Source of the DNA: Escherichia coli
GTDB lineage: Bacteria > Pseudomonadota > Gammaproteobacteria > Enterobacterales > Enterobacteriaceae
Assembly: GCF_003334385.1 (NCBI RefSeq)
Contig: NZ_QOWN01000110.1
DNA: 1,762 nt
Direction: 5' to 3' (one strand)
The notes beneath the pieces were generated by a model that did not search any database, was not told the DNA's origin, and saw only the letters and a program-made list of their open reading frames with translations. The number at the start of each line of letters is the position of its first letter. Within the stretch, counting starts at the first letter, position 1. The translations under genes were made by a program, and so were the position numbers. Positions 1,027-1,762 of this stretch are shown one piece after another.

Positions 1027-1455
1027 ATGTATTGCCGTGCTGTACCAGTTCTTGTTTTGATATTAGCCAGTCTGACAACTGGCTGCACAAAAGATGTATC
1101 GACAAATAATTATGATGCTTCTCTGTATCACTCAGATAAATTAATAAAGTCGCAAAATTTGAGCTCATCGGAACGTACCCCTGATGCCAGTGAAGAAATC
1201 AGGCAGTATGCCATTCAGGTCAGGAAAGCCATAGAAGAACAGTTAAAGGATGCGAGTAAGTATTCAGGAAAAGAGTGTTCACTGAGAATGTATATGGCCC
1301 CGAATGGTCTTCTGCTACAGGTTAAAAGAGAAAGCGGTGATCCCGATTTATGTCGTGAAGCGATGAATGCAGTAAAGAATGCTGATATACCATCACCACC
1401 GTCTTCAGGAGTATATAAAGCATTTAGAAATGGCGTGCTGGATTTTAAACTCTGA
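1027..1455 (+). CDS. Predicted lipoprotein with a TolA C-terminal domain (TolA domain III)-like fold; moron-type accessory gene
   Basis: 142-aa ORF with an SD-like GGAG 8 nt upstream. The N-terminus MYCRAVPVLVLILASLTTGC has a basic n-region, a hydrophobic core and a lipobox-like TTGC, giving Cys20 as the predicted lipidated residue; Thr at +2 implies no inner-membrane retention signal. Residues ~55-142 (EEIRQYAIQVRKAIEEQLKDASKYSGKECSLRMYMAPNGLLLQVKRESGDPDLCREAMNAVKNADIPSPPSSGVYKAFRNGVLDFKL) align by eye with the E. coli TolA C-terminus as I remember it (YAGQIKSAIE..DASSYAGKTCTLR..APDGMLL.IKPEGGDPALC..A..AAK.AKIPKPPS..VY.VFKN..LDFK), roughly half identical, including both cysteines at the same 25-residue spacing. 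GC about 41% by hand count. Confidence 0.85.
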   Translation: MYCRAVPVLVLILASLTTGCTKDVSTNNYDASLYHSDKLIKSQNLSSSERTPDASEEIRQYAIQVRKAIEEQLKDASKYSGKECSLRMYMAPNGLLLQVKRESGDPDLCREAMNAVKNADIPSPPSSGVYKAFRNGVLDFKL

Positions 1456-1490
1456 CAGGGGGAGAAGATTTTCTCCTGTCCTGATGATTT
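1454..1490 (+). terminator. Candidate intrinsic terminator immediately after the lipoprotein gene
   Basis: Hairpin overlapping the stop codon: GACA (1454-1457) and GGAGAA (1461-1466) pair with TTCTCC (1471-1476) and TGTC (1477-1480), with a GGG bulge and a GATT loop. It is followed by CCTGATGATTTTGGGG; the T-run is short and 6 nt from the stem, so this is weak. Confidence 0.35.
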
Positions 1491-1548
1491 TGGGGCGCTG
1501 GAAAGATATTGTGCTGTGAAGTGTTAAATTCCTCACAATTCAGTAAGT

Positions 1549-1564
1549 TGACAGTTGCCTGTCA
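1549..1564. repeat. Perfect palindrome TGACAG-TTGC-CTGTCA (6-4-6), overlapping a consensus -35-like TTGACA (1548-1553)
   Basis: Direct reading: 1549-1554 TGACAG is the reverse complement of 1559-1564 CTGTCA. The same TGACAG / CTGTC arms form the outer stem of the hairpin at 1453-1480. No matching -10 hexamer was found at 16-18 bp spacing from the TTGACA. Confidence 0.5.
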
Positions 1565-1602
1565 GACTGAGCATTTGTTAAAAAAATTTCGCATGGTGAA
1601 TC

Positions 1603-1618
1603 CCCCTGTGCGGAGGGG
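1603..1618 (+). repeat. GC-rich hairpin motif copy 1 (CCCCTGTGCGGAGGGG)
   Basis: 14 of 16 positions identical to copy 2 at 1743-1758. Forms an imperfect stem CCCCT/AGGGG. Confidence 0.45.
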
Positions 1619-1740
1619 CGACTGGTGAACGGTATGATCTCTTTGATGATCGTAAGCGAGAATATGCGGGTTTAGTGTCACCGGGCTGAACTCACCGGGA
1701 GGCACCCGGCACCATGCAATGGCACATAGCGCCACTCTCC

Positions 1741-1762
1741 AGCCCCTCTCCGGAGGGGCTTT
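1741..1762 (+). terminator. GC-rich hairpin motif copy 2 (AGCCCCTC-TCCG-GAGGGGCT), followed by TTT at the window edge; candidate intrinsic terminator
   Basis: Perfect 8-bp GC-rich stem with a 4-nt loop, followed by T residues that run off the window. A full T-tract cannot be confirmed. Confidence 0.4.

Follow-up and report, generated by a model that had tools for sequence, protein, structure and literature searches.

We analysed a window of 1,762 nucleotides (nt) of Escherichia coli DNA (contig NZ_QOWN01000110.1), to which all positions below refer unless another record is named. Its last 307 bp (1456–1762) very probably hold the gene for a small RNA (sRNA) of the STnc100 family, which would extend from 1519 to 1762 and about nine bases past the window's edge. 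Several E. coli chromosomes contain the whole window with 100% identity, and the annotation of E. coli strain SCU-104 places it in the late region of a lambdoid prophage. The genes there are, in order, RusA, Q antiterminator, a hypothetical gene, DNA methyltransferase, tRNA-Ile(CAU), tRNA-Arg, a lipoprotein annotated as TolA, an unannotated gap of 525 bp, a SASA/NanS-p esterase, holin, lysozyme and Rz. The 307 bp studied here are the first part of the gap before the esterase, and they are preceded in the window by the following features, the last of which overlaps their 5' end.

1–546: DNA methyltransferase gene.
587–748: tRNA-Ile(CAU) and tRNA-Arg genes.
1027–1455, plus strand: gene for a TolA-like lipoprotein of 142 residues.
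1456–1480, plus strand: hairpin just 3' of the lipoprotein stop codon, with GGAGAA (1461–1466) paired with TTCTCC (1471–1476).

A sequence-only reading had described the last 307 bp as free of convincing open reading frames (ORFs) and dense in palindromes, and had offered several explanations, a structured small RNA among them. All the strings that it quoted are present at the places it gave. No plus-strand ORF of more than 46 residues overlaps the region, and the abundance of palindromes is genuine: the region has five perfect hairpins whose arms are 6 bp or longer, while 300 dinucleotide-preserving shuffles of 1456–1762 average 0.5 and none of them reached five. The density of hairpins is well above chance, and the G+C fraction of 1562–1762 is 0.547, against 0.41–0.45 in neighbouring segments. 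The GGAGAA/TTCTCC hairpin is one of the five; it is part of the upstream gene rather than of the sRNA module and may terminate transcription weakly, although the terminator scan did not call it. Two GC-rich motifs, CCCCTGTGCGGAGGGG (1603–1618) and CCCCTCTCCGGAGGGG (1743–1758), are indeed identical at 14 of 16 positions and lie 140 bp apart. A direct match of this quality arose in 3 of the 300 shuffles, while a repeat search widened it to 15 of 17 and showed the two hairpins to be also 76% complementary to each other. A CCGGG-AGGCA-CCCGG hairpin is likewise in place at 1695–1709. The repeated TCACCGGG does occur at 1678 and 1692, but it is not exceptional, since 120 of the 300 shuffles contain a repeated 8-mer.

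The comparison with Rfam that the same reading had proposed identifies the region. Positions 1562–1762 of the plus strand match RF02076, STnc100, with 164.8 bits (E 1e-38), and the match reaches the 3' edge of the window. When nine more bases are included it becomes full length, covering model positions 1–206 with 179.1 bits (7562–7771 of the longer record L001, that is to window-equivalent 1771). The curated gathering score of this family is 47 bits, and one phage record annotates the module as STnc100. STnc100 is a gammaproteobacterial prophage sRNA first listed in Salmonella, and a 2022 survey counted it among the most abundant annotated sRNA families, listing it without a function. The present copy has the helices, invariant blocks and prophage late-region context of the family and no essential difference from it; the family is already known, and the finding is genuine but ordinary.

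Of 5426 complete E. coli genomes, 2587 carry sequences like the 181-nt RNA; the number of places in a genome has a median of 2 and reaches 10. In RefSeq, most of the E. coli matches listed have no annotated feature beneath them. Further copies were sought by a pattern scan of genome contigs (CACCGGGNNNNNCCCGGCACCA), which gave at least 120 loci and was too permissive, most of these being chance matches in unrelated, mostly high-GC genomes. When 26 Enterobacterales loci from the scan were re-checked with Rfam, 23 had STnc100 matches; Pantoea and Buttiauxella loci from the scan had none on this re-check. This is why no Salmonella locus was among those retrieved. The Rfam-confirmed copies come from at least nine genera (Escherichia, Citrobacter, Enterobacter, Superficieibacter, Phytobacter, Pseudocitrobacter, Lelliottia, Silvania and Leclercia).

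A total of 37 distinct copies were aligned with MAFFT without reference to structure, and RNAalifold was used to derive a consensus for their cores. It consists of five helices, which in the window copy occupy 1591–1717 of the plus strand as follows.

1591/2–1598 with 1710–1716/7, plus strand: P1, the closing helix.
1599–1601, plus strand: junction AAU.
1602–1606 with 1612–1617, plus strand: P2, with A1614 bulged and loop UGUGC; the first of the two GC-rich hairpins.
1618–1620 with 1665–1667, plus strand: P3, which closes a variable insert.
1668–1672 with 1689–1693, plus strand: P4.
1694: A, unpaired.
1695–1699 with 1705–1709, plus strand: P5, with loop AGGCA; the CCGGG-AGGCA-CCCGG hairpin.

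Standard pairs fill 96.6% of the cells of this structure, compared with 42–47% when the 3' partners are slid by 1–3 columns, and 15 of the 25 pairs show changes on both sides; none of 500 shuffles reached any of the pairing measures, with the caveat that the structure was predicted on the alignment used for the counts, which favours it somewhat. The Rfam structure on an independent alignment returns the same verdict for P1, P2, P4 and P5, whereas Rfam helices 1, 4, 5 and 8 are poorly supported on the MAFFT alignment. P3 is a covarying 3-bp helix of our alignment that is not seen in the consensus line of RF02076. The single-sequence fold listed with the core has a free energy of -80.5 kcal/mol (z -2.3). 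The core thus has a conserved secondary structure that is supported by covariation, and the compensatory changes across homologues, together with the family match, bear out the suggestion of a structured non-coding RNA.

Two near-invariant blocks frame the core, a 5' block (G/A)UGGUGAAUCCCCCUnnGCGGnGGGGC at 1593–1619 and a 3' block CACCGGGAGGCACCCGGCACCA at 1693–1714. They are separated by the variable insert, such that the whole core measures 90–136 nt, and conservation is lost outside the blocks, both 5' of the first and 3' of the second. One of the two copies of TCACCGGG lies in the P4 loop and the other starts the 3' block. The loop and junction nucleotides (AAU, U..GC and AGGCA) are invariant across genera while the stems covary. 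The order of the helices recalls a tRNA, and a tRNA-like element was considered and rejected, the likeness being confined to helix connectivity: ARAGORN gave no hit in the core with its thresholds at default or 90%, its hits at 70–80% were inconsistent and out of register, and the Rfam tRNA model had no match over 1591–1717 at E up to 1. The core also carries two Shine-Dalgarno-like strings, GGAGGGG and GGGAGG. For the eleven STnc100 copies of strain EDL933, ratios of ribosome footprints to transcripts range from 0 to 3.2 (PMC5331693), which can be read either as binding of the RNA by ribosomes or as an artefact of its compact fold.

Upstream of the core lie a candidate promoter and a second promoter-like hexamer to which the sequence-only reading had drawn attention.

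1519–1590, plus strand: conserved 5' flank of the sRNA module, holding the proposed sigma-70 promoter.
1555–1560, plus strand: proposed -35, TTGCCT.
1576–1577 (TG) and 1579–1584 (TAAAAA), plus strand: proposed extended -10, at an 18-nt spacer from the -35.
1548–1553: TTGACA.
1549–1564: perfect 6-4-6 palindrome, TGACAG-TTGC-CTGTCA.

The TTG of the proposed -35 (1555–1557) and TGTTA.AAA (1576–1584) are invariant in five relatives, and TTGCCT/TAAAAA align with the TTGACT/TAAAAA promoter of PasD2, an sRNA of enteropathogenic E. coli (EPEC) that is compared with this copy below. As an anchor across the 37 copies we used the [A/G]UGGUG that begins the core, which coincides with the start of the closing helix or lies 2 nt inside it. 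Upstream of this anchor the mean -10 score is highest for hexamers that end 6 nt away, and a -10-like hexamer of at least 3 bits ends 6–12 nt upstream of it in 73% of the copies, compared with 22–35% in control windows. Moreover, the 5' end of PasD2 derived from RNA sequencing (RNA-seq; 741157) coincides with the G that opens the homologous closing helix. From the conserved promoter, the -10 enrichment and this 5' end we infer that the RNA starts near G1591 and would be about 177 nt long. TTGACA at 1548 is present as described and has no -10 partner at 16–18 nt. The hexamer and its palindrome are found only in the copy's own subgroup and the 933W type; YYZ-2008, phi296 and E. albertii lack them or have them in altered form. 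TTGACA is therefore probably not the -35.

The 3' part of the gene consists of a linker and a terminator.

1718–1740, plus strand: variable single-stranded linker AAUGGCACAUAGCGCCACUCUCC..., the putative target-pairing (seed) region.
1741–1762, plus strand: intrinsic terminator AGCCCCTC-TCCG-GAGGGGCT, then UUCUUGU; the second of the two GC-rich hairpins.

The linker contains a C/U-rich CACUCUCC and varies between subfamilies while the core is nearly invariant. We regard it as the putative seed because in PasD both the proposed seed, UGUGAG, and the ends of chimeras from RIL-seq, which ligates interacting RNAs and sequences them, lie in the corresponding linker. The terminator hairpin spans 1741–1760, with a U-rich tail that runs past the edge to window-equivalent position ~1767. 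It was called by the terminator scan (8 pairs, 6 of them G-C, then TTCTTGTGGG) and corresponds to positions 183–206 of the Rfam model. A terminator hairpin with a U tail is a feature of Hfq-dependent sRNAs, which this copy shows only weakly because its tail, with 6 U in 9, is interrupted. Most aligned copies end in a GC-rich hairpin and T run of differing sequence, and a few have no terminal hairpin with T run within the extracted span. The linker and terminator variant of this copy is common to phage phi296 and one E. albertii copy.

The proposal that the two GC-rich hairpins are a pair of terminators holds for the second alone, as the first continues CGACTGG without a T run. A conserved duplication, or a terminator/antiterminator switch formed by the two, was also considered and rejected: across the family the terminators vary (GCCTGC.., GGCTGCC.. 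and GGCCTCTC.. in most members) while P2 is invariant. The likeness of P2 to the terminator hairpin is confined to the subgroup and is treated here as incidental.

The position of the module agrees with that of its relatives, being in the late region of a lambdoid prophage between Q and the lysis genes, and STnc100 copies in Shiga toxin (Stx) phages, Leclercia and Superficieibacter lie in an equivalent context. The Q gene ends at L001 4913 and the module starts at ~7519, about 2.6 kb away; between them are three coding sequences (hypothetical, methylase and cargo) and two tRNA genes. The element had also been likened to a Q-dependent late leader. It does lie inside the late operon, and the lambda-type leader (the pR'-tR' 6S RNA; StxS) is likewise a short, terminated, structured RNA of a Q-controlled late operon, one that is read through when Q is present. 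However, that leader starts at pR' right after Q, whereas this element lies ~2.6 kb further on and apparently has its own promoter, so that its position rules out the pR' leader.

In different phages the module, made up of STnc100, a convergent AsxR-type gene, a terminator and nanS-p, is preceded by different genes: stx2B in 933W, stx1B in YYZ-2008 and, in the stx-negative phage phi296, directly by tRNA genes. Similarity to Stx1, Stx2 and stx-negative phages begins at window positions 1500–1533 regardless of the upstream cargo, and 5' of ~1519 there is no homology to Stx phages. Since the similarity starts here whatever precedes it, the sRNA module is taken to begin at ~1519 and the TolA-like lipoprotein gene to occupy the cargo ("moron") slot, where Stx phages have stx.

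The convergent gene lies outside the window, where RF02703, AsxR, matches the minus strand at L001 7828–7776 (window-equivalent 1776–1828) with 63.0 bits, exactly at the gathering score. The match lies 5 nt beyond that of STnc100 on the opposite strand, so that an AsxR/AgvB-type gene and STnc100 stand tail to tail, as in the convergent sRNA dyads of Tree et al. (2014). Its conserved 3' part matches AsxR, while its 5' variable region, CGAUUAUAAAAAUGUAUA..., differs from the CGAUUAUUAAAACGAGUA... of AsxR. It is this 5' region of AsxR that pairs with FnrS (PMC4104026 supplement), and because it differs the RNA encoded here may sponge a different sRNA. Between the AsxR-type gene and nanS-p is a second strong plus-strand terminator, AAGGCTGCGCAACTGCGCGGCCTT and a T run (L001 7852–7884; window-equivalent 1852–1884), which is conserved in 933W and YYZ-2008 and has 5'-arm substitutions in phi296. 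Read-through from STnc100 that ended at this terminator would be antisense to the anti-sRNA.

Some STnc100 copies stand in tandem arrays of 2–4, found in Leclercia, Superficieibacter and E. albertii.

L116 3509–4627: tandem array (Leclercia).
L012 1237–1932: tandem array (Superficieibacter).
L011 9779–11404: tandem array.
L010 4825–5482: tandem array.

By their ORF listings, for which no family search was made, the first two arrays lie between a Q-like gene and holin- and lysozyme-like ORFs. Some array members consist of the core only (model positions 31–147), and two single copies directly abut a tRNA gene (L063 and L078). Hypothetical proteins or a pseudogene are annotated over the STnc100/AsxR region in several phage and genome records (L124 1612–1839, L125 1534–1964 and L126 3198–3439); ORFs annotated across this region are probably artefacts over RNA genes.

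Expression of relatives of this RNA has been described under several names. Tree et al. reported convergent pairs of Hfq-bound sRNAs at the "moron" site of eight Sakai prophages, which in Sp5 are EcOnc27 and AsxR (EcOnc02), 3' of stx2B (PMC4104026). EcOnc27 was crosslinked to Hfq, with a crosslink peak that abuts the AsxR 3' end, and ran at ~235/247 nt on Northern blots, the 247-nt form being destabilised without Hfq (PMC4104026 supplement). Its published probe corresponds to 1674–1708 of our 933W record (L122), over the linker and terminator of the 933W STnc100 copy, and because the probe maps inside this copy we identify EcOnc27 with the STnc100 RNA. EcOnc27 is also sRNA103, over-expression of which raised fimZ and espA transcripts. 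The gene in Sp5/933W is homologous to the one described here and occupies the homologous slot, with ~79% identity over the module, nearly identical core blocks and the same convergent pairing with an AsxR-type gene. It differs in its upstream cargo, stx2AB in place of the TolA-like lipoprotein gene, and in the sequences of linker and terminator, so its targets need not be shared with this copy. For strain EDL933 eleven STnc100 copies are listed; RNA-seq reads were recorded for each of them, and a Northern blot confirmed one (PMC5331693).

EcOnc27 was placed by its probe sequence because the published coordinates gave conflicting offsets. They put EcOnc27 at 1268411–1268490 (plus) and AsxR at 1268494–1268542 (minus), abutting each other (PMC4104026 supplement), while the main text puts AsxR 282 bp after stx2AB (PMC4104026), and anchoring the Sakai coordinates on the AsxR sequence or on stx2B gives offsets that differ by ~138 nt. 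A later study (PMC12711010) reuses the EcOnc27 coordinates unchanged and probably places it too far 5', as the probe puts it on the 3' part of STnc100. In a separate study, Paganini et al. associated clinical outcome with two changes after stx2B, a single-nucleotide polymorphism at +90 and the deletion of a T at +103. In the one Stx2c phage aligned here (L127), the differences from 933W (L122 1440–1745) in that stretch, GTTAAAAAAATTTCGC against GTTTAAAAAA-TTCGC, affect the proposed extended -10 and the spacer that separates the -10 from the proposed start of STnc100/EcOnc27.

PasD1 and PasD2 of EPEC E2348/69 are abundant RNAs of 172–173 nt that form RIL-seq chimeras through their 3' part, the chimera ends falling within the last 50 nt (PMC8550237), and PasD and STnc100 have been judged related (bioRxiv 10.64898/2026.05.13.724894). 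Their genes are positioned as here, downstream of Q and upstream of the SASA/NanS-p esterase, and PasD2 can be aligned with the window copy in promoter, closing helix, P2 and terminator. The size of PasD was determined experimentally, with a start at the closing helix, and its expression as an RNA of its own was seen by RNA-seq and Northern blot. Identity with PasD was nevertheless rejected: the PasD2 locus falls below the STnc100 gathering score, with P5 and the 3' block degenerate, and the window copy's linker lacks UGUGAG.

We consider it very likely that the locus is an STnc100 sRNA gene in a lambdoid late operon, just after the cargo slot, with the family membership, covarying junction, subfamily-specific linker and intrinsic terminator described above. 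In a lysogen the RNA would be made from its own sigma-70 promoter (TTGCCT, 18 nt, TGnTAAAAA), starting near G1591 and ending at its own terminator after ~177 nt. Hfq would associate through the 3' hairpin and U tail, as proposed for EcOnc27/sRNA103 and PasD, and the variable linker would pair with target RNAs, as proposed for the PasD seed UGUGAG. Because the element lies inside the late operon, Q-modified polymerase from pR' should during lytic growth read through this terminator and the next to nanS-p and the lysis genes, a step that follows established lambdoid late transcription.

Several observations weigh against this account. The evidence for expression and Hfq binding comes from homologues, and the U tail is interrupted (UUUCUUGU). 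A promoter scan found no plus-strand site at its thresholds, and there are other -10-like elements at 1522–1530 and 1535–1540. With the proposed start the 933W RNA should measure 171 nt, and the EcOnc27 bands of ~235/247 nt are longer; they would put the 5' end 28–40 nt after the stx2B stop codon, so that transcription may begin further upstream or a longer transcript may be processed. The effects of sRNA103 on fimZ and espA come without a demonstrated mechanism, and the literature reports no validated direct target for any STnc100 member. Finally, the putative seed varies while the core is near-invariant, the reverse of what is seen in most base-pairing sRNAs, and this suggests that the core has a function separate from base pairing.

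That last point invites the suggestion that the core is the functional part, binding a conserved host or phage protein or mimicking a tRNA-like substrate, with the 3' part secondary. Loops and junction nucleotides that are invariant across genera over covarying stems would fit such a role, as would the existence of core-only copies and, in our own reading, a helix connectivity like that of a class II tRNA (a closing helix and four arms, the last abutting the 3' strand); the Hfq crosslinks and RIL-seq ends also fall in the 3' part, outside the core. However, no partner is known, the searches with ARAGORN, even relaxed, and with the Rfam tRNA model returned nothing in register, and PasD is abundant and active in RIL-seq with only a degenerate core, so that we think it rather improbable. 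The element might instead act in cis. The STnc100, AsxR and second plus-strand terminators would in that case insulate nanS-p and the lysis genes of the lysogen from transcription arising in the cargo or at the sRNA promoter, the core would help to process or stabilise late transcripts made under Q antitermination, and the free sRNA would be a by-product. There are three terminator-like sites in 140 bp (L001 7741–7760 plus, 7798–7781 minus and 7852–7875 plus), all conserved beside nanS-p in Stx phages, the module is located at the cargo junction, and tandem copies take up the entire Q-to-holin interval in Leclercia and Superficieibacter. Against this, homologues accumulate as separate RNAs, bound to Hfq and joined to many mRNAs in chimeras, and a terminator alone suffices for insulation, for which a 125-nt junction with invariant loops is not needed. 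We consider a cis role unlikely; it is also compatible with the STnc100 sRNA gene that we favour.

The two other explanations concern the DNA itself. The 6-4-6 palindrome overlaps both the -35-like hexamer and the proposed -35, as might be expected if the palindromes were binding sites (for example an operator) for a phage or host regulator. Since this palindrome is not conserved in close relatives, and the other inverted repeats covary as RNA stems that include G-U pairs, which are meaningless in duplex DNA, we regard this as very unlikely. The sequence-only reading had further noted a stop-free minus-strand frame, which indeed runs from the window edge through 66 sense codons to a TGA (TCA on the plus strand, 1562–1564), and had suggested the 3' end of a convergent protein gene. 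Extension to the right shows that the frame closes just past the edge, leaving an ORF of 57 residues from a GTG start; RefSeq has no coding sequence there, the comparison with 933W shows indels of 8 and 4 nt that interrupt the frame, and the pattern of conservation is that of paired RNA stems. Such a gene is almost certainly not present.

Two neighbouring genes of the window merit a comment. The cargo product is a predicted lipoprotein with a signal ending LTTGC, and in its residues 47–142 the C-terminal domain of TolA is recognised by TIGR02794 (75.9 bits, profile positions 266–361 of 362); it also matches PHROG 5772, a family of unknown function. A periplasmic decoy of TolA domain III could plausibly block TolA-using colicins or filamentous phages. 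The tRNA gene at 587–662 is called tRNA-Met (anticodon CAT) by ARAGORN and tRNA-Ile by RefSeq, the ambiguity usually met with a tRNA-Ile2 that is lysidine-modified, of the ileZ type carried by Stx-like phages. The tRNA gene set listed for Stx-like phages is ileZ/argN/argO.

The reading of the raw sequence had correctly picked out a genuine structured RNA of a known family, one whose members adjoin the Shiga toxin genes in Stx phages, and the interest that remains lies in its unexplained invariant core. We suggest, tentatively and with more doubt than confidence, that the junction at 1591–1717 is an active module, protein-binding or mimicking tRNA topology, that sets processing, stability or the choice of partner. 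If this were true, STnc100, EcOnc27 and PasD would form a system of a constant structured domain plus an exchangeable seed, mirroring the design of AsxR/AgvB on the opposite strand, in which the 3' end is constant and the 5' seed varies, and the STnc100 and AsxR/AgvB types together would be a swappable regulatory cassette at the prophage cargo junction. The anatomy described here, with its five-helix junction, likely promoter and start, and variable linker as probable seed, gives experimental handles on this family.

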